DNA of 64,000 nt from Bacteroidota bacterium (GTDB lineage: Bacteria; Bacteroidota; Bacteroidia; Bacteroidales; UBA10428), in assembly GCA_016699695.1 (NCBI GenBank), contig CP065006.1:2494562-2558561 (forward strand), written 5' to 3'. Shown one piece after another: positions 9,431-60,901 of this stretch (position 1 is the stretch's first letter; each line of letters starts with the position of its first letter). Position numbers and translations under genes: made by a program. The notes under the pieces are model-generated. The model saw only the letters and a program-made list of their open reading frames with translations. It made no database searches and was not told the origin of the DNA.

Positions 9431-10069
9431 TCAGATGAGGAAAGGATTTGTATCATGTTCTGCTCCAATTGTGGTGCTTGGGCCATGTCCGCTGTAAACA
9501 TTCGTTTCGGGTGGCAGGGTAAGTAGTTTTTGTTTAATGCCACTAATCAAACTATCGTAATCTCCTCCAGGCAAATCGGTTCGTCCGATAGAACTTCTAA
9601 ATAAAATATCGCCCACAATAACAAATTTATCCGCCGCCGAATAAAATGCCAATCCACCAGGTGAATGACCAGGTATATGCATCACCTGCAATGTATGCTT
9701 TCCGATTTCAATCCGGTCCGACTCATCAATGTATTGGTTAATTACCGGAGTTTCGTCAAAAGCGAGACCAAACATTTCGGCAGTAATCCGGGCCGAAGAA
9801 AGCAACAACTCCTCATTACGATGCATTTTGAAAGGGATTTTAAGATCCTTTACCATGCGGCTTACACCAAGGAGGTGATCCACATGCCCATGTGTATTTA
9901 CAACAGCGGTGAGTTTTATTTTTTTTTCCTTCAGATAAGCCTTCAGTTGTGCGTATTCCGTTTCTGTTTCGAAAGAGGGGTCAATTATAATACCTGTACC
10001 AGTTTCATCGGTAAGCAGATAGGTATTTACCTGAAAACTATTGAAAACAAAATATTTGAGTGTAATCAT
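9431..10069 (-). CDS. MBL-fold metallo-hydrolase (glyoxalase II-like)
   Basis: 212 aa with the HGHVDH metal-binding motif and downstream His/Asp ligands. Confidence 0.85.
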   Translation of the reverse strand: MITLKYFVFNSFQVNTYLLTDETGTGIIIDPSFETETEYAQLKAYLKEKKIKLTAVVNTHGHVDHLLGVSRMVKDLKIPFKMHRNEELLLSSARITAEMFGLAFDETPVINQYIDESDRIEIGKHTLQVMHIPGHSPGGLAFYSAADKFVIVGDILFRSSIGRTDLPGGDYDSLISGIKQKLLTLPPETNVYSGHGPSTTIGAEHDTNPFLI

Positions 10070-10081
10070 ATTGTTATTGGA

Positions 10082-10723
10082 TTATGACCTTCCTTTTAGC
10101 ATAGGAACAAATAAAAAATCGCCATGTTCGGTACAGGTAGTTTTTTCTGCTTCGGTTTTAATTATAAGATTCATTACCTGTTTGTGATTGTCGCCTACCG
10201 GAATAATCATGCGTCCGCCTGGTTTAAGTTGAGTAACCAGGGCATCAGGAACTTCGGGTGCGCCAGCTGTTACAATAATTTTGTCGAAAGGGGCATAGGT
10301 AGGCAATCCTTTAAAGCCATCGCCGTAAAAAAATTGTGGAGAATAGCCCAATTCAAGTAATAACTTTTGCGCACCCAGACTTAAAACTTTATGTCTCTCA
10401 ATAGTAAATACCTGGGCACCTAACTCTACTAAAATAGCCGATTGATACCCTGAACCGGTGCCAATTTCAAGCACTTTATCACCTTTCTTAATTTCCAGCA
10501 TCTGGGTTTGGTAGGCCACCGTATAGGGTTGCGATATGGTTTGGTTGGCAGCAATCGGGAAGGCTTTGTCTTTATAAGCGAAATGAATAAATCCACTGTC
10601 CATAAAAAAGTGTCGCGGCACCTTATTAATAGCAGCCAACACATTTTCGTCTGTGATGCCTTTACTTCTAATCTCTTCAACGAGTCTACGCCGAAGCCCC
10701 TTGTGCAAAAAACTATCTTCCAT
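10082..10723 (-). CDS. pcm: Protein-L-isoaspartate O-methyltransferase
   Basis: ORF 10082..10774. The internal ATG at 10723 gives MEDSFLHKGLRRRLVEEI. SAM motif VLEIGTGSGYQSA and ISQPYTVA present. Confidence 0.88.
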   Translation of the reverse strand: MEDSFLHKGLRRRLVEEIRSKGITDENVLAAINKVPRHFFMDSGFIHFAYKDKAFPIAANQTISQPYTVAYQTQMLEIKKGDKVLEIGTGSGYQSAILVELGAQVFTIERHKVLSLGAQKLLLELGYSPQFFYGDGFKGLPTYAPFDKIIVTAGAPEVPDALVTQLKPGGRMIIPVGDNHKQVMNLIIKTEAEKTTCTEHGDFLFVPMLKGRS

Positions 10724-23573: not shown

Positions 23574-24886
23574 TATCATTAGTGGGCACTTAAAACCCAC
23601 TGATTTTTAATTGTTTAACTTGAAGTTCTTTGACATATTTGTAATCGCATTTTGTAAGTATCTCTCTTACAGGCGTTTTATCGAGTAGAGAAATGCTGAA
23701 TATTTGTAATATTTCGTAGATTGGACGGTCAACTTTCAGTTTGTTTCCAATTATGGCGACTAAACAGTAAGCAATGATCCCACAATATATTTGGATCTTA
23801 ACAGCATTCATTGAATTTCCCCAAAAGGATTTAATCTTTAAGTGTTGTTTCATCCATTTGAAAAATAGTTCAACTTCCCAGCGTTTCTTATACAACATGG
23901 CGATCTCTTTGGCTTCTAACTCGGTATTATTGGTTAAGAAAACAAGTTCATTTTTACTTTCCTGATCATAATACTTTATTCTGCGAAGTTTATCGGGATA
24001 TTCCTTTTTCGAATAGTGTGTTTCTAGCTTTCCAACCTGATCATATTGTACTCCTTTTGTTTTGTCAACAACTCTGGAATATAGTCGCCTAAAACGCATA
24101 TTTTCTTTGGCTCTTGTTACAAAATATGCGCCTTGAGAATGCAATCTATGCAAACGACGGAAGTCAATATATGCTTTATCAACCACATAAAAACTTCCAG
24201 CTTCAAATTGGATGAGATCAAGTATATTGACATCATGGACACTTGCTTTGGTGATATGTAAAAAGCTTGGGATGGATGTCTTCACATCATATAAGGTGTG
24301 AAGTTTTATGCCTCCCTTTGCCTTTCGGAACTCAGCCCACCAAAAAACACTCAAACATAGATCAATAGTTGTGGAATCTAATGCATAAACGTTACCGTCT
24401 ACCTTGACTTCGAAATCGGTTTTGTAGCAACTCCTTCTGGCCTGCTCAATTAAAACGTAAGCAAACTCTTCAAATATTCTATAACTGCGTTTTGCATTTG
24501 AAGTGCCTAGATTTCGTCGGGATACTGAAGGCCCAAATCCAAGGTGATAATATTTGGGTTGATGTGCTTCCAAACTAAGCATTAGATCACGCATACTGTC
24601 TCTTGAAGTTAGCTGTCCAAAGACCATGCAAAGCATCTGATTCCAACAAGTGAATGTTCTAACATACTTATTCCCTTCATGATTTTGAACAATCCGATCA
24701 AAAACCCTGCGGGGTAAAAAATCTGTAAGTTGTGCGAAGATAATTTACCTTGATTCATAGAATTTGCTTGTTTTGAAGCAAATATCTAACTATTCAATTC
24801 AAATCGTCACGCTATCAAAAAACGCTACAACTGCGATGTACAAAGAATTTCAAAGAACGTAACTTAATTTATAATGCCCACTAGTG
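23574..24886 (-). mobile_element. IS4-family insertion sequence, 1313 bp
   Basis: Terminal inverted repeats cattagtgggca (23574..23585) and tgcccactagtg (24875..24886) match 11/12. The element is flanked by the 9-bp direct repeat aaacaatat. It has a single DDE transposase gene with the Y(2)R(3)E(6)K signature. Confidence 0.85.
23590..24758 (-). pseudogene. IS4-family DDE transposase (DUF4372-like N-terminus), frameshifted after codon 5
   Basis: The ORF-track piece is 23590..24636. The same frame stays open upstream to 24744 (IIFAQLTDFLPRRVFDRIVQNHEGNKYVRTFTCWNQ). The only plausible ATG (24758, MNQGK) is in another frame, and the two frames meet at GGTAAATT. DDE context VYALDSTTIDL, FYVVDKAYIDF, YKKRWEVELFFKWMK. 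Confidence 0.7.
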
Positions 24887-24986: not shown

Positions 24987-26663
24987 ATGGCATCTCTAGC
25001 TGAGTTTACAAACCAGTTGGGTTCTGCAATGGCTGCGCATTTGCTTCGGCGTAGTACTTTCGGCCCTACGGTTGATCAAATCAACACTTTTTCTGGCCTT
25101 ACTCCGGCTCAGGCGGTCGATCTGCTTTTTCCGGCCAACCCCGATTTGGTCCCAGTTCCTCTTCCACCTATCGATCCTGCCACAGGTAGCTCATGGGTTA
25201 ATCCGCCTGCTTACCCGAAGGCAATTGCCGATGTGAATAGCGAACAGGATACCTTAATAAATTACTTCCGTGCCTGGCACAGCGATGTAATGATAAAATC
25301 AGAATTAAATGTGGTGGAACGCATAACCTGGTTCTACCATACACACTTACCGGTAGCATGGACTGAAGTGAACTCAAGCGAGGCTATTTATTACCAGAAT
25401 GCTGTGTTCAGGTACTATGCTCTTCGAAGTTTTAAGGAACTTTTTAAGAAAATCTGTATCGACAATGCCATGCTGAAATACCTCGATGGGTATACCAACC
25501 ACCGCAACAGTCCAAACGAAAACTTTGCCCGCGAAATGCTTGAGCTATACAGCATTGGCAAAGGTCCCCAGCTTGAAGAAGGAAATTATACCAATTATAC
25601 CGAGCTTGATATCAGAGAAGCAACCAAAGTACTTACTGGTTGGTTGTTCGATGATACTTTTACTACCCTCGATGCCGACCATAGCTGGCCAAGCGGTAAA
25701 TTACAAAGTGTCGGAAATCAGGCTACCGCCCACGATTTTTCTCCAAAAACCTTTAGTGCTGCATTCAGCAACCAAAGCATTCAACCTGCAGAGTTGGATG
25801 GTGGATATGCTACCCTCGCTGCTGCCCGCCAGGAGCTGAGCGACATGATAGATATGATTTTTGATGAAATAGAAACAGCCCGGTTTATTGTACGCAAACT
25901 CTACCGGTTTTTTGTGTACCATTTTATATCCGAAGAGGTCGAGAACGATATTATTGTACCGCTTGCCAATACCCTTTCTGCCAACAATTACGAGATACAG
26001 GCTGTGCTAAAGCAATTATTCAAGAGCCAGCATTTTTACGATGCCGACGATGCGCTTACCTCCAACAACAACATAGGTGGGGTGATTAAGTCGCCGGTAG
26101 ATTTATGTGTAGGGCTTCTGCGTTTTTTTGAAACTGTGCTGCCCGACCGAGATACACAAACTACAGCTTTTTACAACGACTTTATAAACGGCATTCTTCC
26201 GCGATTTGTGGAGCAGGGGCTGAATTTTTACGAACCCTTTGAGGTTGCTGGTTTTCCGGCTTTTCATCAAATGCCGGGGTTTGGCCGGAATTGGGTGATG
26301 CCAACCGAACTTGCCAGACGCTATCAGGTAGGTGAAGTGTTTATGAAACGCATTGGAGGTACTGAGGGCTTTAGCTTTCGCATGGATGTATTTGGTTGGG
26401 TTGAAAATTCGGGACATATCTCAGACCCGGGCGATGCAAATGAGCTGGTGACTTTTTTCACTACTCACTTGCTGGCTGTCCAAATCAATACCGAGCGGTA
26501 CGAATACTTCCTGAACACCGTATTTCTTGATACCCTTACTGCTGCCTCATGGAGAAACGAATGGGGAGTCTACAAAGGTGGTGGCAGTGATACGGTGGTG
26601 CGGGAACGCATCGAATACCTGGTTTCTAAATTAATTCAAACACCCGAATTTCAACTCCTATAG
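24987..26663 (+). CDS. DUF1800 domain-containing protein
   Basis: 558 aa. N-terminal AAHLLRRSTFGP motif typical of DUF1800. Immediately followed (3-nt gap) by a DUF1501 gene, the usual pairing. No signal peptide seen. Confidence 0.7.
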   Translation: MASLAEFTNQLGSAMAAHLLRRSTFGPTVDQINTFSGLTPAQAVDLLFPANPDLVPVPLPPIDPATGSSWVNPPAYPKAIADVNSEQDTLINYFRAWHSDVMIKSELNVVERITWFYHTHLPVAWTEVNSSEAIYYQNAVFRYYALRSFKELFKKICIDNAMLKYLDGYTNHRNSPNENFAREMLELYSIGKGPQLEEGNYTNYTELDIREATKVLTGWLFDDTFTTLDADHSWPSGKLQSVGNQATAHDFSPKTFSAAFSNQSIQPAELDGGYATLAAARQELSDMIDMIFDEIETARFIVRKLYRFFVYHFISEEVENDIIVPLANTLSANNYEIQAVLKQLFKSQHFYDADDALTSNNNIGGVIKSPVDLCVGLLRFFETVLPDRDTQTTAFYNDFINGILPRFVEQGLNFYEPFEVAGFPAFHQMPGFGRNWVMPTELARRYQVGEVFMKRIGGTEGFSFRMDVFGWVENSGHISDPGDANELVTFFTTHLLAVQINTERYEYFLNTVFLDTLTAASWRNEWGVYKGGGSDTVVRERIEYLVSKLIQTPEFQLL

Positions 26664-26666
26664 ATT

Positions 26667-28310
26667 ATGAAAAGAAGAGATTTTATACGACGTCTTTCCT
26701 ATACTAGCGCAGGCGCCATGGTATTAGGTGGTGTGCCGGTCAACGCAATGAAAGGAAATGGACTTTTCCAGCTGGCAGCCGCCTCGGCGAACAGCGATAA
26801 GGTGCTTATTTTTATTCAACTTCACGGCGGAAACGATGCCCTGAATACGCTCATTCCGGTGGCTCAATACGACCGGTATTACGAATTACGGCCCAACCTG
26901 GCTATTTTGCAATCGGGCGACAGAGGTTACAAAGAACTCGATTCAAGCCTGGGCGATGAATACCGAGTAGGGGCACACCCCGAAATGATTGCCCTGAAAG
27001 AAATGTACGATGAGGGGAAGGTTGCCCTGGTGCAAAATGTGGGTTATCCCGAAATGAACCTTTCTCATTTCCGTGGTACCGACATTGTTTTTATGGGTGG
27101 AGATGCTCAAAGCGATTACGAATCGGGTTGGATGGGTCGCTACCTCGAGTATACCTATCCGGGTTATCCAGATGCTTATCCAAACAGCACTATGCCTGAC
27201 CCTCTCGGCATAGAATTAAGCGGGGCTCAATCGCTTGCCTTTCATACCGAAACAGGAATTCCTAACGGATTAAGCTTTTATAGTCCCGAAGGTTTTTATG
27301 AATTGATAAACAGCGTAGGAAACTATACCACCCAACCCCCCATTGTTTACCCCGACAGCCATGCAGGCGATGAGCTGCGATACATTATGGAGTTTGAGGC
27401 TAAAAACAATCAGTATGCACCCAGGTTAAAGGCTGTTTACGAAGCTGGTACAAACTCCTCTACAGTATATCCCGATGCATACCCCCGTTATGCACCAAAA
27501 GCTTATATCAACAACCAGCTGGCACCTCAATTAAGGTTAATTGCCCGACTGCTTAGCGGAGGAATTAAAACAAAGATTTTCCTGGTGCGTATTGGTGGTT
27601 TCGATACGCATGGTGAACAGGTAGTGGCCGGTGAGCCTTCATTGGGTATGCATGCAGCATTGCTTTATCACCTTTCCGAAGGGGTTAAAGCATTTTTTAA
27701 CGACCTGAAGGCACTGAACCTGGATCATAAGGTGATGGCGATGACCTTTACAGAATTTGGCCGACGTGCTTATTCCAACAACAGTTATGGCACAGACCAT
27801 GGTACCTCTACTCCGGTAATTTTATTTGGAACTGGACTGAATGCAGGCGTTCATGGGGTGAACCCAGATTTGAACGACTTGGAAAATGGCAACCTCAAAT
27901 ACAATATCGATTACCGACAGATTTATACTTCGGTGGTTCAGGATTGGCTGGGCGCAAGCGATGAGGCCTTGATAGCTACAGGTTTCGACGAATGGGTTGG
28001 CAATAAAATCGACCTGATTGGCACAACCAACACCAGGGATCTGATGGGTTCAGCAGATAGAAGTCAGCTGAAGGTATTTCCCAATCCGGTAAAGAGCTTA
28101 TTTACGGCCGAATTTTATCTTACTGGTCCGGGTTTGTACCAGGTAATTTTTTTTAACCTCGAAGGCAAACAGGTATTTACTCAACAAGGTAACGGTCTTT
28201 ATGGCACCAATAAATTCGAAATGAATGCTTCGGGCCTCGATGCAGGCAAATACATTGCTCAGGTAAGGGCAGGAAAGAAAGTGTTTGTGTCGGCATTTAT
28301 TAAGCAGTAA
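26667..28310 (+). CDS. DUF1501 (sulfatase/alkaline-phosphatase-like) protein with a Tat signal and a T9SS C-terminal sorting domain
   Basis: 547 aa. MKRRDFIRRLSYTSAGAMVLGG is a twin-arginine signal. FDTHG and GTDHGT motifs present. The last ~80 aa (LKVFPNPVKSLFTAEFYL...LDAGKYIAQVRAGKKVFVSAFIKQ) look like a type A T9SS sorting domain. Confidence 0.75.
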   Translation: MKRRDFIRRLSYTSAGAMVLGGVPVNAMKGNGLFQLAAASANSDKVLIFIQLHGGNDALNTLIPVAQYDRYYELRPNLAILQSGDRGYKELDSSLGDEYRVGAHPEMIALKEMYDEGKVALVQNVGYPEMNLSHFRGTDIVFMGGDAQSDYESGWMGRYLEYTYPGYPDAYPNSTMPDPLGIELSGAQSLAFHTETGIPNGLSFYSPEGFYELINSVGNYTTQPPIVYPDSHAGDELRYIMEFEAKNNQYAPRLKAVYEAGTNSSTVYPDAYPRYAPKAYINNQLAPQLRLIARLLSGGIKTKIFLVRIGGFDTHGEQVVAGEPSLGMHAALLYHLSEGVKAFFNDLKALNLDHKVMAMTFTEFGRRAYSNNSYGTDHGTSTPVILFGTGLNAGVHGVNPDLNDLENGNLKYNIDYRQIYTSVVQDWLGASDEALIATGFDEWVGNKIDLIGTTNTRDLMGSADRSQLKVFPNPVKSLFTAEFYLTGPGLYQVIFFNLEGKQVFTQQGNGLYGTNKFEMNASGLDAGKYIAQVRAGKKVFVSAFIKQ

Positions 28311-29558: not shown

Positions 29559-30332
29559 TTATTTTCTGTTTTTTGGTTTCGGTTGCTTTTGTTTGGCTTG
29601 TCCGGGTGCCGGACAATCAAGGGCACCTTTCGATTCGGATTGATCCAAATAAAACAACACCGACAAACTGATTGATAGATCGTTTAGCTTTATATCGCTT
29701 TGCGAATAGGGTGTGTCGGAATCGGTCATGAAGCGTTCATCTTTTCCGGTAATACTATGCATGCCTAAATTATAGGCGCCGGTAAGCACGAGTTCGAATG
29801 ATGTAAAGGAATAATGCGCACCGCCAATGGGGGCCACACTTATTTTAGGACGAATAAACGAATGTGTGGCATTACCACCTTGCTGAAGCAGGTGTCCGTA
29901 ACTGGCTGCACCTCCAATAAAGGGTTTTAGCTTGGCATTTCCCAGCATGTATTTAATTTCTAAAGGAATCTGAAGGTAACGCAACAGGTAGGTGTTTGTT
30001 TGTTCAACTGGTTCGGTAATAAAATCAATCTGGTCTGTTTTGCTGAACCGAAAGGTATAGAAGCCAGGTTTTAAGGCGATTACAAAATGTTTAAATACAA
30101 TCTCGCCATGAAAAAAAAACTGGTTTCCAAGATTGGAAAACAACCCTGAATAATTGCTTGAGTAAGGGTTACCGGTAAGGTCTTCGTACAGGGAATAAGA
30201 ATTTACTTCGCTGATTTGTGCGAAGTTGATTCCGCCTCCAAAACCATACTTAAAATTGGGCTGAGAAAAAACAGTTTGTGCGTAAGTTGCCAGTATCATG
30301 GCGAATGATGCAAAGAAAAATCTCTTTGTCAT
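29559..30332 (-). CDS. Outer-membrane beta-barrel protein (porin/PorT-like family) with a basic C-terminal tail
   Basis: 257 aa. Signal peptide MTKRFFFASFAMILATYAQTVFS/Q and alternating beta-strand pattern. A barrel-like end (LSVLFYL) is followed by DQSESKGALDCPAPGQAKQKQPKPKNRK. Confidence 0.7.
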   Translation of the reverse strand: MTKRFFFASFAMILATYAQTVFSQPNFKYGFGGGINFAQISEVNSYSLYEDLTGNPYSSNYSGLFSNLGNQFFFHGEIVFKHFVIALKPGFYTFRFSKTDQIDFITEPVEQTNTYLLRYLQIPLEIKYMLGNAKLKPFIGGAASYGHLLQQGGNATHSFIRPKISVAPIGGAHYSFTSFELVLTGAYNLGMHSITGKDERFMTDSDTPYSQSDIKLNDLSISLSVLFYLDQSESKGALDCPAPGQAKQKQPKPKNRK

Positions 30333-30506
30333 GGTGTGGTAGTTTTGTGTTCTTATTTAACGATATTTCATTTGATTGGGTATGCATTTGTTGAAATTTT
30401 TAATTTCTTTTAAATGCCTAAACCCGGTTCAAACTTGCTATCCTTTAAATAGAATAAACCAATAACCTCCTAAAAAGTTTCTTTCGAAGAAAAAAATTGC
30501 TGCCGT

Positions 30507-32606: not shown

Positions 32607-33773
32607 CTAATATTCAAAAGTGCCAAATTCGCTGCTAATGGTTAGTTTTTTTTCTGTTGCCGCTTCCACACGCCCAACTATTTGCGCATCTACCTGAAAA
32701 GACTTAGAAATGTCGATTACACTTTGGGCATATTGTTCAGGTAAGTAGATCTCGAAACGATGCCCCATGTTGTATACTTCGTACATCTCCGACCAGTCGG
32801 TGCCGGATTGTTTTTGTAACATTCTGAATAGCGGTGGTACTTCAAACATATTATCCTTGATGATGTGCAGCTTGTCTACAAATTTTAACACTTTCGTTTG
32901 CGCACCGCCGGAGCAATGAATCATTCCGTGTATATGAGGTCTTAATTTTTCAAGTACCAATTTGATAATTGGTGCATAGGTGCGGGTAGGAGAGAGTACC
33001 AATTGTCCGGCATCGACTCCTAAGCTGGGTATGTCATCTGTCAAATCGAATTTTCCAGTATACACAAGCGATTGGGGCAACAGGTCGTCGTAACTTTCGG
33101 GGTATTTCAGTGCCAGATGGTTTTTAAACATATCGTGACGGGCCGAAGTAAGTCCGTTGCTGCCAATACCGCCGTTGTATTGTTTTTCATAGGAGGCTTG
33201 TCCGAAAGAAGAAAGCCCTACAATCACATCTCCTGGCTGTATATTGTTTACAACCACATCTTTCCGTGGCATACGGCAAGCGACTGTTGAATCGACAATG
33301 ATGGTGCGCACAAGGTCTCCTACGTCGGCTGTTTCGCCTCCGGTAAGGTGCAGGTGTACACCATGTTTGGCCAGTTCTTTAATCAGTTCGTCATAACCCT
33401 TTAAGATGTGCATAATTACAGAGCCGGGTATTTTTAGCTTATTACGGCCTATGGTCGATGAAAGTAAAATGTTGTTGGTGGCACCTACGCACAAAAGATC
33501 GTCGAGGTTCATGATTACCGAATCGTGGGCAATTCCTTTCCAGACCGAAAAGTCGCTCGTTTCGCGCCAATAAATATAGGCTAAAGATGATTTTGTTCCG
33601 GCCCCATCGGCATGCATCACAATACAATAATCGGGATCGTTGGTAAGGTAGTCGGGCAGAATTTTGCAGAAAGCATTGGGGTACAAACCGCTGTCTATGT
33701 CAGCAATGGCCGAATGCACATCTTCTTTTTGTGTCGAAACTCCTCTGCTGCCGTAACGTTCTGCTTTGCTCAT
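32607..33773 (-). CDS. purM: Phosphoribosylformylglycinamidine cyclo-ligase (AIR synthase), long Bacteroidota form
   Basis: 388 aa, AIR-synthase N and C domains (DGAGTK, LTGGETAD, HCSGGAQTK). Confidence 0.82.
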   Translation of the reverse strand: MSKAERYGSRGVSTQKEDVHSAIADIDSGLYPNAFCKILPDYLTNDPDYCIVMHADGAGTKSSLAYIYWRETSDFSVWKGIAHDSVIMNLDDLLCVGATNNILLSSTIGRNKLKIPGSVIMHILKGYDELIKELAKHGVHLHLTGGETADVGDLVRTIIVDSTVACRMPRKDVVVNNIQPGDVIVGLSSFGQASYEKQYNGGIGSNGLTSARHDMFKNHLALKYPESYDDLLPQSLVYTGKFDLTDDIPSLGVDAGQLVLSPTRTYAPIIKLVLEKLRPHIHGMIHCSGGAQTKVLKFVDKLHIIKDNMFEVPPLFRMLQKQSGTDWSEMYEVYNMGHRFEIYLPEQYAQSVIDISKSFQVDAQIVGRVEAATEKKLTISSEFGTFEY

Positions 33774-33884
33774 ACCTTTGGTTTATTTCTGGTGCAAAAA
33801 TAATAAAACTTATTGACTCACGGAACTGATTTGTGGCCACCACTATGGTGGTGGCCTGCAAACTCCTGTTGAAGGGGATTTCAA

Positions 33885-33913
33885 CAAAAAACCACCTTAA
33901 AACTTAAGGTGGT
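33885..33913 (-). terminator. Rho-independent terminator after folE
   Basis: accaccttaa-aac-ttaaggtggt hairpin. The minus strand is followed by T6 (A6 at 33886..33891 on plus). Confidence 0.75.
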
Positions 33914-33940
33914 AATTTGGTTTTGTATGTTGTTTTGTGG

Positions 33941-34648
33941 TTATGCTTGTTTGACCTGATCGAGAAACTCCCGCCGGTATTCCGGTTCTTTAAATTTGCC
34001 ATGAAAGCTACTGGTATAGGTCGAGCTGTCCTGGTCTTTTATTCCACGCAGGGTAACACACATATGGTCGGCTGTTATCACCACTGCTACATCTTCGGTT
34101 TGAAGAGCTTTTTTAAGTTCTTCGGCTATTTGCACAGTCAGGCGTTCCTGCACCTGTGGCCTGCGGCTGAAGAAATCGACAATACGGTTAATTTTCGATA
34201 ATCCAATTACTTTACCGTTCGAAATGTAAGCTACATGGGCTTTGCCTATGATTGGAACGAAGTGATGTTCGCAATACGAATGTACCTTCACGTTTTTCTC
34301 AATCAGCATTTCGTTGTAATTGTAACTGTTGTCGAATAATGTGACACTCGGTTTGTTGGCAGGGTTTAACCCGCTAAAAACTTCGTTGACATACATTTTC
34401 GCTACTCTTTTGGGTGTGTCGCGCAAACTCTCGTCTTCCAGGTCAAGACCCAATAGTCGCATAATCTCGGCAAAGTGATTTGATATCAGATTGATGCGGG
34501 TTTCAGTATCTTGCATCTCTGTGTCGAGATGTAAATCGTTTCGGTCGAGTTTGGGTTCGTCAGAAGGGGAGATAATCTTTAAAAATTCGCGCGAGCGTAT
34601 CGATTCGGTATTTTCTGCATATACCGTGGTTTTATTTTGTGCATTCAT
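33941..34648 (-). CDS. folE: GTP cyclohydrolase I
   Basis: 235 aa, CEHHFVPI and ITADHMC motifs. The start is 12 nt downstream of the sigma gene's stop. Confidence 0.9.
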
Positions 34649-34660
34649 GGTGTGTACTGT

Positions 34661-35167
34661 TTAGTAAGCGTAATCTTGTAATTTCTCCATCAACTTTTTG
34701 CGGGTAAAAAAGATGCGACTTTTCACTGTGCCAATCTTAAGGTCGAGCTCATCTGCAATTTCTTTGTATTTAAAACCTTGGGTGTGCATTAAAAAAGGGA
34801 TACGAAATTCGTCTTCCAATTCGCTGATGGCTTTGTTTATCTCCTTGGCTGATATTTCGCTTTCGGGCGTTTCGGAACGGCTTTCGCGGTTCAGGTTAAG
34901 GTAGAACAAATCGTCGGTGTTGTCAAAAGTGGTGTTTGCTTTCGATGCCCTGCGGTAATTGTTGATGAAGGTGTTCTTCATGATGGTAAAGGTCCATGCC
35001 TTCAGGTTGGTATTGTCGATGTATTTATCGCGGTATGAAATTGCTTTAGCAAAGGTTTCCTGCAGCAAATCTTTGGCATCTTCTTTATTCGAAGTAAGGC
35101 TTAGAGCAAAACGCTGCAAGTTGTCGCTCAGGCTTGTCAATTGATAATTAAATTCTATGGCTGTCAT
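34661..35167 (-). CDS. ECF-type RNA polymerase sigma-70 family factor
   Basis: 168 aa, region 2 (DAKDLLQETFAKAISYRDKY...AWTFTIMKNTFINNYRR) and region 4 (GFKYKEIADELDLKIGTVKSRIF). Confidence 0.85.
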   Translation of the reverse strand: MTAIEFNYQLTSLSDNLQRFALSLTSNKEDAKDLLQETFAKAISYRDKYIDNTNLKAWTFTIMKNTFINNYRRASKANTTFDNTDDLFYLNLNRESRSETPESEISAKEINKAISELEDEFRIPFLMHTQGFKYKEIADELDLKIGTVKSRIFFTRKKLMEKLQDYAY

Positions 35168-35465
35168 GGCTGTATGTTTTAATTAAATTGTTTAACGAAG
35201 GTATGAAACGATTAAACACAATGCAAATCTGTTTCGTTTTTTGACCCTGAATTCTAACTCAATTAAATTTTATGTATACATATAATCACCACAAAAACAA
35301 TCAATTATAGATTAGAATTCTAAATAGCTAAAAAATCTTAAAATGTTTAACGTAAAATGCTAAACATTAAACAATATATTTCAGAAGGATTAAACAAAAC
35401 TAAACGGATGCACTGTAAAAAACAGTGAATGAATAGTTTAATTGCAAGAAACTAAGAAGGAGGTA
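35168..35465 (-). promoter_or_regulatory. Repeat-rich control region between the B12/MerR regulator and the ECF sigma gene
   Basis: 298-bp AT-rich spacer. It contains attaaaca x3 (35211, 35366, 35389), tgtttaacg x2 (35189, 35344), gaattctaa x2 (35249, 35315), and the hairpin cactgt-aaaaa-acagtg (35411..35427). Confidence 0.5.
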
Positions 35466-36350
35466 TTAGGCGCTGAGTTTATCAATTATCTTAATGAAGT
35501 CATTTACGGATGCCACTACTTTTATGTTCTTCGGACTTTTCTTGAGACTTTGGGCCTGATGTCCGGTAAAGAAGATGGTGGTATCTTTAAACTCCTTTGC
35601 CAATTCCTGGGAGTATTCCTGAAGTTCGTCCTCTTCCATGGAGCCTACCACAGAGGTTACCAGGTAATCGGTTGGTTTTAATTTTTGCATCGAAACCAGG
35701 CTGCTAAGTGGCAACATAGCGCCAAGGTAAATAACCCTGTGACCTCTTTTACGGAGCAGGTAACTTAAAAAAAGTAATCCAAGTTCGTGGAGTTCCTTCT
35801 CTGGAAGATAGAGGATAAAGGTTTTTGATACCGGCGAATAGTTAGGCACCACACTGTCAATAGCTACAATAAATTTTTGGCGTACAAGGTTGGAAATAAA
35901 ATGCTCCTGGGCAGGTGTGATGGTGCCTGCCTGCCACATAACTCCCATTCGCTTAAAGAAGGGATAGAGTAATTGCAAAACCATCTGCTCAAATCCCATT
36001 TGTATGGTTGCTCGCGAAAGCAGCTTCTCGAAAAGGCTTTCGTCCATATCAATCATGGCAATGTAAAGGCTTTCGATCTGACTATCCTGGTCGGTAGGGT
36101 TTTCGGTAAGCTTTAAAACCAAACTGGCAATTTCTTCGCCAGATAATTCGGCTATCTTCGAAATTTTTAAGCCATGCCTGTTTAATATCGAAATATTTAA
36201 GATTTTTTTGAGTTCCAGGTCACAATAAGAACGGATGTTGGTGGAGGTTCGGTCAGGTTCAATCATCCCGTAACGTTTTTCCCAAATTCTGATGGTATGG
36301 GCTTTAATACCCGAAAGTCGCTCAAGATCTTTAATGGAATAGGTACCCAT
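35466..36350 (-). CDS. MerR-family transcriptional regulator with a cobalamin-binding domain (CarH/LitR-type photoreceptor)
   Basis: 294 aa. N-terminal MerR HTH (YSIKDLERLSGIKAHTIRIWEKRYG). W139-x9-E149-H150 (MWQAGTITPAQEH) and the E-x-H-x-x-G lower-ligand motif (ELHELG, H188) followed by a Rossmann-like domain. Confidence 0.8.
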   Translation of the reverse strand: MGTYSIKDLERLSGIKAHTIRIWEKRYGMIEPDRTSTNIRSYCDLELKKILNISILNRHGLKISKIAELSGEEIASLVLKLTENPTDQDSQIESLYIAMIDMDESLFEKLLSRATIQMGFEQMVLQLLYPFFKRMGVMWQAGTITPAQEHFISNLVRQKFIVAIDSVVPNYSPVSKTFILYLPEKELHELGLLFLSYLLRKRGHRVIYLGAMLPLSSLVSMQKLKPTDYLVTSVVGSMEEDELQEYSQELAKEFKDTTIFFTGHQAQSLKKSPKNIKVVASVNDFIKIIDKLSA

Positions 36351-36450
36351 GGACAGTAATTGTAATTTTGTTATTGTCTATAACAAATCGTATTGACGAT
36401 AGTTTAATGTATTGTTAAATAATTTTATTCGATGTTTAAACAAACTTGAG

Positions 36451-37089
36451 TTAAAGTTTGCGTATAATGCTGATTCCATCTCGCAGAGGAAGCATTAGAA
36501 CCTCCACCCTTGCATCGGTAACTAACTTCTGGTTGAAATCCATGATGGCTTTTGTGTCGGCATCAGGGTTCAGATCTGCGTTTAATACCTTGCCATCCCA
36601 AAGTACATTGTCGACAAGTATTGTTGAGCCGCTTCGTGTTTTTTCGAGGCAAAGTTCAAAATACTGCAAGTACTCCTGCTTGTTGGCATCGATAAATACC
36701 AGATCGTATATTTCATCGAGTTTCGGAATAATTTCCAGGGCATTACCAGTAATCAGGGTGATGTTGGACTCAAGTCCCGCTTTTTTAAAGTACTTTTTTG
36801 GTATGCGGACAATTTCATCGTTGCATTCGATGGTATGAAGGTGTCCGCCATTTTTTAATCCTCTTGCCAGACAAATGGTGGAGTAGCCGGTGTAGGTGCC
36901 TATTTCAAGTATGCGCAAAGGTTGAATCATTCTGCTGATATACTCAAGAAGCTTTCCTTGAAGGTGTCCTGATAACATTCGAGGGTTAATAGCTTTCAGG
37001 TGGGTCTCGCGGCTGAGTTCTTTAAGCAGCGGATCCTCCTGACTACTATGCTGGACTAGGTAATCTTCCAAAGGCCTATTTACTATCAT
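36451..37089 (-). CDS. Class I SAM-dependent O-methyltransferase (family 3, caffeoyl-CoA OMT-like)
   Basis: 212 aa, ILEIGTYTGYST SAM motif, FIDANKQEY. Confidence 0.85.
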   Translation of the reverse strand: MIVNRPLEDYLVQHSSQEDPLLKELSRETHLKAINPRMLSGHLQGKLLEYISRMIQPLRILEIGTYTGYSTICLARGLKNGGHLHTIECNDEIVRIPKKYFKKAGLESNITLITGNALEIIPKLDEIYDLVFIDANKQEYLQYFELCLEKTRSGSTILVDNVLWDGKVLNADLNPDADTKAIMDFNQKLVTDARVEVLMLPLRDGISIIRKL

Positions 37090-38506: not shown

Positions 38507-38579
38507 GGTACCATAGCTCAGTTGGTAGAGCACAGGACTGAAAATCCTGGTGTCCCTGGTTCGATCCCGGGTGGTACCA
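38507..38579 (+). tRNA. tRNA-Phe (anticodon GAA)
   Basis: Cloverleaf read by eye. Acceptor ggtacca/tggtacc, D-loop agctcagttggtagagc, anticodon loop cuGAAaa, T-arm cctgg-ttcgatc-ccggg, discriminator A. CCA is not encoded. Confidence 0.95.
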
Positions 38580-38585
38580 CAAACA

Positions 38586-38612
38586 AAACCTCCTCAATCA
38601 GGAGGTTTTTTT
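38586..38612 (+). terminator. Rho-independent terminator after tRNA-Phe
   Basis: cctcc-tcaatca-ggagg hairpin followed by T7. Confidence 0.8.
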
Positions 38613-38843
38613 GTTTCCATCAGTTTGTATCCGGACTGCCAGGCTTCAGTGTAAAGGGCAGCGGTAAGATTTCACATTCTCATTACCTCAAACTGAATTC
38701 GGCTATGCTTCAGTTTTCTTCATCCCTGAATGTGCTGTTCACACTTTTTAATTGCAATCACTTTTGGTTAACTTTGTGTTAATTGCCTTTACGTTTGCCA
38801 AGGCAACAGACTTATTCTATTATCTTGCAAAAAAACTTTCATT

Positions 38844-59672: not shown

Positions 59673-60302
59673 TTAGCTGCGTTTTTCGAAAAGGTGAATC
59701 AACTTTTTTGTTTCGAAAAAAGGATCGGTAAAATATTCTGAGAGATCGATTGCAACATACCTTTCTGCAAAAGACATCAATTCTTCCTCAAGGTTGCCAC
59801 CTTTTAAGTAGAGAATGCCATTGGGAACCTCATGCTTCCAATCGGAAGAAATGTTTTTTCGCACCCAGCTATAAAAATCAGGCATATTGGTAACCGCCCG
59901 GCTCACAATGAAATCGAATTTTTGATTGACCTCTTCTGCCCGAATTACTTTAGCTGCGCAATTGTTTAGCCCAATTTTTTCGATAATGTCGTTGACAACC
60001 TTAATCTTTTTCGCTATGGAATCGATGAGCAGAAAATTGGATTGTGGGAACATGATGGCAAGGGGGATGCCCGGGAACCCACCACCTGTGCCCACATCCA
60101 TAATTTTGCTTACCGGTAAGAATTGAATGTGTTTGGCTATTGCCAGACTATGCAATACATGCCGGACATACAATTGGTCGATGTCTTTTCGCGATACCAA
60201 GTTAATCTGGGCATTCCAAAAATGATACAAGTCGGAAAGTTGCGCAAATTGCTGTTTTTGATGTGCAGAAAGACCAGGAAAATAACGAAGAATCTCCTCC
60301 AT
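59673..60302 (-). CDS. rsmG: 16S rRNA (guanine527-N7)-methyltransferase
   Basis: 209 aa, DVGTGGGFPGIPLAI SAM motif. The ATG overlaps the upstream stop (TAATG). Confidence 0.9.
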   Translation of the reverse strand: MEEILRYFPGLSAHQKQQFAQLSDLYHFWNAQINLVSRKDIDQLYVRHVLHSLAIAKHIQFLPVSKIMDVGTGGGFPGIPLAIMFPQSNFLLIDSIAKKIKVVNDIIEKIGLNNCAAKVIRAEEVNQKFDFIVSRAVTNMPDFYSWVRKNISSDWKHEVPNGILYLKGGNLEEELMSFAERYVAIDLSEYFTDPFFETKKLIHLFEKRS

Positions 60303-60901
60303 TAAATGTGATGGGTTGTATTACGCAGGATATTGAAAAGTAGTTCGCGCGCCCTGAATAGTTGGGCTTTCACAGTTCCGATCGGCAACTCAAGTTCTTC
60401 TGATATTTCTTCGTAAGAGTATTCGTTGAAGTAGCGAAGCTCGATTAGTTTCCGATAGCGCGGTTTCAGGCGAGAAACTAGTGATCGCATAATTTTAAGC
60501 TTCTGCTCTTTGATCATCGTTTCTTCCGGATCTAACACGGAGGCCATAATATCAGGCGACGACTTTTCGTTGTCTTCGTCGGTAATATCCAGCGAAACAG
60601 TGTTGGCCTTCTTTTTTCGAATAAAATCGATGCAGTTGTTGGTGGCAATTTTAAATAGCCAGGTGCTGAAAGCAAAATTTGGGGTGTATTGTTCAAGGTT
60701 TTTAAACGCCTTGCCAAAAGCTTCGATGGTAAGGTCTTCGGCATCGCTGGCATTGTTTACCATTTTTAACAGCATAAAGTAGATGGCGTCTTTATACCTG
60801 TCGAGCAGCTCGGTATAAGCCTTCTGTTCGCCTTGTATGGCTCGCTGCACCAGCAAAAAATCACGCTGTGCCTTTTCGGAAAGGTTGTTTGCTACTTCCA
60901 T
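60302..60901 (-). CDS. ECF-type RNA polymerase sigma-70 family factor
   Basis: 199 aa, region 2 (DAEDLTIEAFGKAF...FSTWLFKIATNNCIDFIRKKK) and region 4 (YSYEEISEELELPIGTVKAQLFRAR). Confidence 0.85.
   Translation of the reverse strand: MEVANNLSEKAQRDFLLVQRAIQGEQKAYTELLDRYKDAIYFMLLKMVNNASDAEDLTIEAFGKAFKNLEQYTPNFAFSTWLFKIATNNCIDFIRKKKANTVSLDITDEDNEKSSPDIMASVLDPEETMIKEQKLKIMRSLVSRLKPRYRKLIELRYFNEYSYEEISEELELPIGTVKAQLFRARELLFNILRNTTHHI

Follow-up and report, generated by a model that had tools for sequence, protein, structure and literature searches.

The 64-kb stretch of Bacteroidota DNA analysed here (assembly GCA_016699695.1, contig CP065006.1, positions 2,494,562 to 2,558,561; hereafter the window, meaning the whole stretch) harbours a gene for a CarH/LitR-type regulator of the MerR family (LitR), followed by genes for an extracytoplasmic function (ECF) sigma factor and for GTP cyclohydrolase I (folE), which opens the pathway to pterins and folates. 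The explanation favoured as a whole, and held to be probable, is that LitR in its dark state represses a sigma-folE operon, that light releases the repressor, and that folE is a direct target of this control. The three genes and the hairpins next to them are arranged as follows:

35466..36350, minus strand: litR/carH-like gene; 294-aa MerR-family protein with a B12-binding four-helix bundle and a Rossmann domain (Pfam, PDB matches, motifs)
34661..35167, minus strand: ECF-type sigma gene; 168 aa, without a neighbouring anti-sigma gene (Sigma70_r2, Sigma70_r4_2, TIGR02937)
33941..34648, minus strand: folE, GTP cyclohydrolase I; 235 aa (NCBIfam NF006824)
35408..35430, minus strand: short hairpin CACTGT-ttttt-ACAGTG followed by a T-rich stretch, right after the litR stop codon (inverted repeat I19)
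33891..33913, minus strand: terminator-like hairpin with a 10-bp stem followed by a T-run, 28 nt past the folE stop codon

A preliminary description of this DNA had given the gene order and strand, a litR-sigma spacer of 298 bp (35168..35465) and a distance of 12 nt between the sigma stop codon and the folE start codon, all of which were reproduced by the open reading frame (ORF) listing. Its assignments of the sigma and folE genes are likewise backed by family models scoring above their cut-offs. The 168-aa protein matched Pfam Sigma70_r2 and Sigma70_r4_2, only regions 2 and 4 being present, and reached 79.3 bits with the ECF superfamily model TIGR02937 (cut-off 42.9 bits); no specific subfamily threshold was reached, the best being that of the GFO_1088/PG0214 family (89 bits versus 130). 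FolE scored 280.7 bits with NCBIfam NF006824 (cut-off 202 bits), 235.5 bits with TIGR00063 (cut-off 181.6) and 222.8 bits with Pfam PF01227 (GTP_cyclohydroI). The hairpin at 33891..33913 would end a bicistronic sigma-folE transcript ahead of the following purM-like gene, and that at 35408..35430 may represent a weak terminator between litR and the predicted sigma promoter. Carotenoid (crt) or photolyase genes, reported by the same description to be missing from the window, were not detected there by tblastn with crtI, crtB, crtZ, idi, lycopene cyclase and photolyase (E<=1e-3).

FolE carries an N-terminal extension of ~45-55 aa ahead of the Pfam GTP_cyclohydroI domain (residues 56-232). This extension is common to several sigma-linked FolE proteins, tblastn matches starting at residue 1 in the sampled loci L089, L091 and L098, and in most other sampled FolE loci the match starts only at residues 39-58.

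The assignment of the 294-aa protein to the CarH/LitR family rests on domain matches, motifs, conservation and predicted fold. Pfam MerR_1 (45 bits, cut-off 21.6) and B12-binding_2 (44.5 bits, cut-off 23) were clearly matched. The Rossmann-type B12-binding model PF02310 yielded 22.8 bits, under its gathering cut-off of 32.1, so that, of the two B12 domains whose search the preliminary description had proposed, only B12-binding_2 was matched above cut-off. With the NCBIfam CarH equivalog model NF052513, 96.6 bits were obtained, the cut-off of 400 not being reached. Because of these two missed cut-offs, LitR is placed in a divergent subfamily.

Both photoreceptor signatures that had been noted for this protein are present at the residues given: W139-x9-E149-H150 within MWQAGTITPAQEH (residues 138-150), and ELHELG (residues 186-191) with H188. 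The recognition helix displays the motif R21-I-W-E-K-R-Y27 of the RxWE(R/K)RY type. The spacing of the C-terminal motifs is exact (E186xH188xxG191-x41-S233xV235-x27-G263), with the second glycine of the terminal GG replaced by His264. In an alignment of 20 homologues (55-90% identity), W139, E149, H150, E186, H188 and most of R21-x-W-E-K-R-Y27 are invariant. The residue after the tryptophan is glutamine (Q140), as in 18 of the 20 aligned sequences; histidine at this position is frequent, not universal, in the CarH/LitR family.

The closest solved structures by sequence are those of Thermus thermophilus CarH (TtCarH; 3WHP and 5C8D; E~1e-17 over residues 2-233), at an identity of ~23%. In this comparison W-x9-EH and ExHxxG align to W131, E141, H142 and H177 of TtCarH, which cap or ligate adenosylcobalamin (AdoB12, AdoCbl). 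An AlphaFold model built on the 20 homologues has a mean pLDDT (predicted local distance difference test score) of 84.5, and by fold it is closest, among PDB entries, to full-length TtCarH (E 1.5e-15) and to the cobalamin-binding domain of that protein, the latter with a template modelling (TM) score of ~0.8 on the target. The family identity originally proposed is thus upheld by sequence (E~1e-17), by fold (~1e-15) and by the invariance of the photoreceptor residues. Judged from sequence and predicted fold, the protein is a divergent class I CarH/LitR homologue and not an equivalog of the curated CarH set.

The spacer between litR and the sigma gene, together with its predicted promoter, contains the following elements:

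35189..35218, no strand assigned: O1, promoter-proximal candidate operator, exact match to TGTTTAA-N16-TTAAACA, 51 nt 5' of the sigma ATG
35344..35373, no strand assigned: O2, distal candidate operator, exact TGTTTAA-N16-TTAAACA, 155 bp upstream of O1
35390..35396, no strand assigned to the element: lone half-site, reading TGTTTAA on the minus strand, upstream of O2 (repeat family D13)
35196..35227, minus strand: sigma-A-type promoter of the sigma-folE operon, with -33 TTTG (35227..35224), a 20-nt spacer and the -7 box TACCTTCG (35203..35196)

The palindrome TGTTTAA-N16-TTAAACA occurs exactly twice in the window, both copies being located in the spacer, against an expectation of 0.01; the repeats for which this spacer had attracted attention are therefore not a matter of chance. 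When up to two mismatches are allowed, just one more site is gained in the whole window, at 36413..36442 ahead of litR. The half-sites of the palindrome are inverted and 24 bp apart from centre to centre, and each of them holds TAAACA, matching the experimentally defined core TnnACA of the 11-bp repeats (nnnnTnnACAn) bound by CarH proteins (PMC9304148). The lone half-site is aligned and conserved in relatives (spacer alignment columns 150-160).

The primary sigma factor of Bacteroidetes has the promoter consensus TTTG (-33) and TAnnTTTG (-7) (PMC7366714). Among 11 related spacers that were aligned, the TTTG and TAnnTT(T/C)G columns vary little or not at all and form part of a conserved block 5' of the sigma ATG that consists of TTTG, ~5 nt, TGTTTAA, 16 nt ending in TAnnTT(T/C)G, and TTAAACA. 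The left half of O1 thus lies inside the promoter spacer; its right half borders directly on the -7 box and extends over the predicted start site. This overlap of candidate operator and predicted promoter is the layout of a repressor operator.

Several other readings of the spacer were discarded. An ECF-type autoregulatory promoter (GAAAC-N20-CGTTT) was rejected, since GAAAC is unconserved in relatives and the conserved columns fit the sigma-A consensus TTTG/TAnnTTTG. An origin of the repeats as mobile or tandem repeat was rejected as well, the element occurring only at this locus in the window and at a position conserved across the phylum. Strict helical phasing of O1 and O2 was dropped as evidence for looping, because the offsets of operator pairs (155, 153, 181, 100, 62-64 and 45 bp), which are conserved within clades, are not uniformly integral helical turns. 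No Rfam match was obtained at E<=1 within 33600..36700, leaving a riboswitch or other known RNA in the spacer or around folE unsupported.

Between the two operators (35240..35330, minus strand), relatives conserve the motif TTATTTAGAA (alignment columns ~245-262), which L002, L004 and L024 carry twice in direct orientation. An inverted pair, GAATTCTAA/TTAGAATTC, is located in the window at 35249..35257 and 35312..35320. This motif may bind another factor or help to bend the DNA.

A scan of a genome collection with the LitR alignment retrieved 80 loci (44-57% identity) from Bacteroidales, Cytophagales, Chitinophagales, Flavobacteriales and relatives. The sigma gene is located directly downstream of litR in 55 of the 80, several of the others ending less than 1 kb from litR, and the same adjacency was found in all eight close relatives. 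The sigma factor is more conserved than LitR itself, with 99, 91 and 80% identity where LitR has 90, 76 and 57%. In 20 of the 80 loci the sigma gene is followed by crtI-crtB and then by idi, lycopene cyclase, crtZ or ispH; in one locus litR directly precedes crtI. No conserved anti-sigma gene was detected beside the sigma gene in these genome loci, where only crtI or lineage-specific families follow it. Since an adjacent anti-sigma gene is lacking, the sigma factor is probably controlled by its own synthesis.

The palindrome shares this distribution. Allowing one mismatch, the N16 form gave 70 matches across 64 litR-sigma spacers, any other spacing giving at most 9, and 46 loci from across Bacteroidota conserve it at the position equivalent to O1. 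As a rule, the sigma ATG is preceded by one copy at a distance of 30-70 nt and often by another further upstream, at 62-64 bp in the Cytophagales type and at 153-155 bp in the lineage of the window. The 155-bp offset between O1 and O2 recurs in L081/82, L083/84, L085 and L087. Of 85 palindromes counted over 1.16 Mb of related loci, 82 are intergenic and 57 are upstream of the sigma gene, and 20 further palindromes precede litR, genes before litR, or the isoprenoid/carotenoid genes crtI, crtZ and ispH. The link between regulator and sigma gene proposed in the preliminary description is therefore conserved across the phylum, along with a palindrome on the predicted sigma promoter.

Six loci of the Marinilabiliaceae type (L028, L029, L051, L061, L069 and L073) have litR without an adjacent sigma gene; a gene for a protein of ~450 aa (the unannotated family F17) precedes litR, with a palindrome upstream. 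On this gene order, the module is wired differently in these loci.

The connection of folE to the regulator-sigma pair was followed in nearer relatives. All six with 62-90% LitR identity, as traced to their contigs, share the order M16 peptidase-O-methyltransferase-LitR-sigma-folE-purM-like-prfA-pyrF, and L002 (57% LitR identity) has the same order, folE included. Sixteen more loci in which the sigma gene immediately precedes folE came from scanning metagenomes with FolE. The linkage of regulator, sigma gene and folE, whose absence from orthologous loci had been named beforehand as grounds for giving up the idea, is thus kept in all sampled relatives of 62-90% identity and in these 16 metagenome loci.

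Such adjacency might be devoid of regulatory meaning, folE being a housekeeping gene in a syntenic block with purM-like, prfA and pyrF, and only the regulator-sigma pair being functional. The whole block from the M16 peptidase gene to pyrF is syntenic, so that shared ancestry suffices within the lineage, and in a neighbour-joining tree all but one sigma-adjacent folE fall into a single clade, as expected for one origin. Moreover, folE is missing from L004 and L024, which share its flanking genes, and in L001, a metagenome-assembled genome (MAG) of a sister lineage, only the last 65 codons of folE remain (9942-10136, 68% identity). As far as these gene contents tell, sigma-linked folE decays or was lost in some sister lineages, and pairing of the sigma gene with folE is limited to a single lineage of Bacteroidales.

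The fine structure of the operon speaks for a functional connection. The sigma-folE gap amounts to 2-125 nt in 26 loci and to at most 25 nt in 17 of them. A housekeeping promoter for folE inside the sigma gene was considered and rejected: TAnnTTTG was found within 220 nt upstream of folE in none of the 26 loci, so that folE has no visible promoter of its own. The terminator-like hairpin is located between folE and the purM-like gene and not between the sigma gene and folE. From the short gap, the missing -7 box of folE and the hairpin following it, a bicistronic sigma-folE transcript starting at the LitR-controlled promoter is inferred.

Furthermore, folE has joined the module on other occasions, the tree indicating at least three independent associations. 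The order sigma-crtI-crtB-idi-PTPS-folE-photolyase (PTPS, 6-pyruvoyltetrahydropterin synthase) was found in L139 and L147/148; in L112/113 and L130, sigma-crtI-crtB-idi-PTPS-folE is followed by genes for a short-chain dehydrogenase/reductase and a flavin reductase and then by a photolyase gene. In addition, L168 has crtI-crtB-idi-PTPS-folE-crtZ, L150 a LitR/TspO pair divergent from folE, and L132 a separate LitR-sigma-folE arrangement. Given these independent arrangements in other Bacteroidota, pterin synthesis genes have joined the light-protection module several times. Light-induced folE is, besides, documented in Pseudomonas (PMC9758184). With these findings set against synteny and common descent, a folE adjacency without regulatory meaning is considered unlikely. 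Because it would be co-transcribed with the sigma gene, folE would be a direct target of LitR and not a target of the sigma factor; through this inferred co-transcription it is most likely under direct LitR control.

The preliminary description had seen pterin synthesis, rather than carotenogenesis, as the first operon-linked output of the locus. Its interpretation is supported wherever computation could put it to the test, with the refinement that the module normally heads carotenoid operons across the phylum and that pterin synthesis is here the remnant of a larger cluster and no substitute for carotenogenesis. Judged by the gene orders compared, the locus in the window is a pared-down version of a light-protection cluster found throughout Bacteroidota, LitR-sigma-crtI-crtB-idi-(PTPS-folE)-photolyase.

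Two details of the larger clusters may be added. In L112, L113 and L130, the dehydrogenase together with FolE and PTPS would complete a tetrahydrobiopterin-like pathway inside the carotenoid/photolyase cluster. In L150, a TspO/MBR gene, another gene of the photo-oxidative-stress type within the module, is located between the litR homologue and the divergent folE and adjoins crtI.

Two further elements are located upstream of litR:

36413..36442, no strand assigned: third palindrome resembling the operators, with one mismatch, within the 100 bp ahead of litR
36378..36408, minus strand: 'type II' element TTAAAC-N17-GTTAT, an everted repeat of the operator core (xAACA-N15-TGTTx)

Palindromes upstream of litR, or of the gene preceding it, are carried by other loci as well. 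The type II element has the consensus T(G/A)AACa-N16/17-tTGTT(T/A)A and is found at -95..-40 in 59 of 87 litR upstream regions, compared with 31 of 555 control upstream regions. The site at 36378..36408 is the top match of the position weight matrix in the whole window, the remaining matches being at the level of shuffled sequence.

One possibility is that the adjacent ECF sigma factor uses the type II element (GAAC/TAAAC-N17-GTT) as its target promoter; it would then drive litR and, by read-through, its own gene in a feedback loop, and the element would be no second type of LitR operator. The element resembles generic ECF promoters in its AAC-containing -35 and GTT -10 regions, is enriched upstream of litR as stated, and lies 25-40 nt before the ATG; forward scores (18.9 bits) exceed reverse scores (11.0 bits). 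The reverse scores are, however, far over random (-11 bits), and several sites score the same on both strands, a substantial two-fold symmetry that agrees with an everted repeat of the operator half-site core. The element is also present upstream of litR in loci without an adjacent sigma gene, and the regions ahead of crt and photolyase genes gave no clear instance of it, just two photolyase matches being obtained. A plain ECF promoter is accordingly kept only as a rival, which is regarded as doubtful although deserving consideration. LitR probably regulates its own gene via the third palindrome and the related everted repeat.

A weak type II match (14.8 bits) is located at 30453..30483 (minus strand), 121 nt before a gene for a 257-aa outer-membrane beta-barrel protein (29559..30332). 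It is probably due to chance, such scores occurring in shuffled sequence, too.

Taken together, the favoured explanation would operate as follows. In the dark, an oligomer of AdoB12-bound LitR would occupy O1 and O2, and its presence at O1, over the housekeeping sigma-A promoter TTTG-N20-TAccTTcG, would keep RNA polymerase off. Light would photolyse the cofactor, break up the oligomer and free the promoter; lack of cofactor would release LitR as well. A single transcript encoding the ECF sigma factor and FolE would then be formed, ending at the hairpin 33891..33913. FolE would raise the supply of pterins and folates, for example of the methenyltetrahydrofolate (MTHF) antenna of photolyases and cryptochromes, the sigma factor would activate unlinked genes, and LitR would feed back on its own promoter.

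Several points weigh against this explanation. The missed PF02310 and NF052513 cut-offs mark the regulator as distant from the curated CarH proteins, and in Thermus CarH it is the histidine after the tryptophan that forms the bis-His adduct of the light state, whereas LitR has glutamine there. Characterised CarH operators are tandem 11-bp direct repeats, whereas the half-sites found here are an inverted pair. Owing to its single origin, the conservation of sigma-folE within its lineage is weak evidence when taken alone, and folE is absent from L004 and L024 and degraded in L001. An unambiguous promoter motif for the sigma factor was not found, the sole candidate being that upstream of litR, which may be an operator. 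With no photolyase, cryptochrome or crt gene in the window, a consumer of the pterin antenna is not demonstrable here, and the relatives of the locus are MAGs labelled only Bacteroidales.

Some of these points would equally suit a regulator that mainly senses the supply of cobalamin, its AdoCbl-bound form repressing sigma-folE and its cofactor-free form releasing it, whereby B12 status would be coupled to folate/pterin synthesis and the sigma regulon in bacteria that are rarely lit. Methionine synthase provides a biochemical link between the metabolism of B12 and that of folate, which would give such coupling a rationale. The glutamine in place of the Thermus CarH histidine, the lack of carotenoid and photolyase genes in the window and the provenance of the relatives from uncultured Bacteroidales would also fit. 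CarH-type proteins require the cofactor to oligomerise and to bind DNA (PMC9304148), so that scarcity of B12 should derepress in any case. The photoreceptor signature W-x9-EH is, however, invariant; in other Bacteroidota, orthologous regulators, sigma factors and operators stand at the head of carotenoid/photolyase clusters, typical defences against light, in which folE adjoins photolyase. Sensing of cobalamin supply as the main function is therefore judged improbable. An equally low probability is assigned to a combined proposal for crt-less Bacteroidales, by which the regulator would no longer sense mainly light but read AdoCbl availability, tie B12 status to folE and the sigma regulon, and at the same time bind paired 30-bp inverted TnnACA palindromes bridged by a tetramer, a mode undescribed for the family.

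Under the favoured explanation of a light-released repressor, the locus can be compared with known systems. The AdoB12 photoreceptor repressor CarH of Thermus thermophilus (PDB 5C8D/5C8E) has the same three-domain layout as LitR and shares with it the W-x9-EH cap, the ExHxxG lower-ligand motif and the RxWE(R/K)RY helix. In both systems the half-sites carry TnnACA and the site overlaps a housekeeping promoter, a predicted one in the case of LitR. The Thermus operator, by contrast, comprises three tandem 11-bp direct repeats and the direct targets are crt genes, while here the inverted pair is present usually in two copies and the target is the sigma gene. Operator design in the CarH family is known to be plastic, CarA binding inverted repeats at -35 and operators overlapping sigma-A -35/-10 elements (PMC9304148). 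An inverted pair 24 bp apart, in paired sites separated by 155 or ~63 bp, is undescribed for CarH/CarA of Myxococcales and for CarH of Bacillus megaterium.

Streptomyces LitS is an ECF sigma factor that drives light-induced carotenoid genes and is encoded beside a class I LitR (PMC11519972). As in that pair, the B12-type litR gene adjoins an ECF sigma gene without an obvious anti-sigma gene, an arrangement that would place control on sigma synthesis, and the carotenoid link recurs in aerobic Bacteroidota, where the pair precedes crtI-crtB. The phylum is different, however, and the operon partner in the window is folE with no crt gene nearby. In Pseudomonas, the regulons of class II LitR proteins (PplR/PmlR with short light-oxygen-voltage (LOV) photoreceptors) include light-induced folE, folM, folX, phrB and cryB (PMC9758184); pterin/folate synthesis as an output of light is thus already established there and not new in kind. 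The class II proteins lack the Rossmann B12 domain, need a LOV partner, involve no ECF sigma intermediate and are encoded in another gene order, in all of which the present locus differs. In the literature searched, no description of a LitR-sigma circuit, its operator or a linkage to folE or PTPS in Bacteroidota was found, which is no proof of absence.

Apart from the litR locus, a few features of the window deserve mention. A tRNA-Phe gene (GAA; 38507..38580, plus strand) is located between the M16 peptidase gene and a PP-loop ATPase gene; the ORF at 38522..38782 is a read-through of this tRNA and no gene. An IS4-type DDE transposase gene (23590..24636, minus strand; DDE_Tnp_1, 108.7 bits) adjoins a DUF2851 gene. 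Its N-terminal DUF4372 match is partial, the gene thus possibly being 5'-truncated, and it may mark a synteny break, the DUF2851 gene of L085 being located much nearer to the pyrF end of the block. A second ECF-type sigma gene (60302..60901, minus strand; 199 aa), unrelated to the LitR-linked one, is located directly upstream of a GidB/RsmG methyltransferase gene. A DUF1800-DUF1501 gene pair occupies 24987..28310 (plus strand), its DUF1501 protein ending in a Por_Secre_tail sorting domain (type IX secretion), which is consistent with a Bacteroidota origin.

To our knowledge, the B12-based photoreceptors characterised so far come from a handful of bacteria, i.e., Thermus, Myxococcus, Bacillus and Streptomyces. 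The ~150 related loci suggest that Bacteroidota share one circuit composed of a CarH-type repressor, a recognisable palindromic operator and an ECF sigma factor, in which GTP cyclohydrolase I, often together with PTPS and beside photolyase, is a recurrent output alongside carotenoids. The 30-bp candidate operator provides a concrete site with a geometry unlike that of the tandem-repeat operators known so far. Operator and regulator as a pair could serve to annotate light/B12 regulons in Bacteroidota genomes, and represent a possible optogenetic part for a phylum that is hard to manipulate genetically. The persistence of the circuit in carotenoid-less and probably anaerobic Bacteroidales raises the question of the role a 'light' sensor plays in dark habitats.

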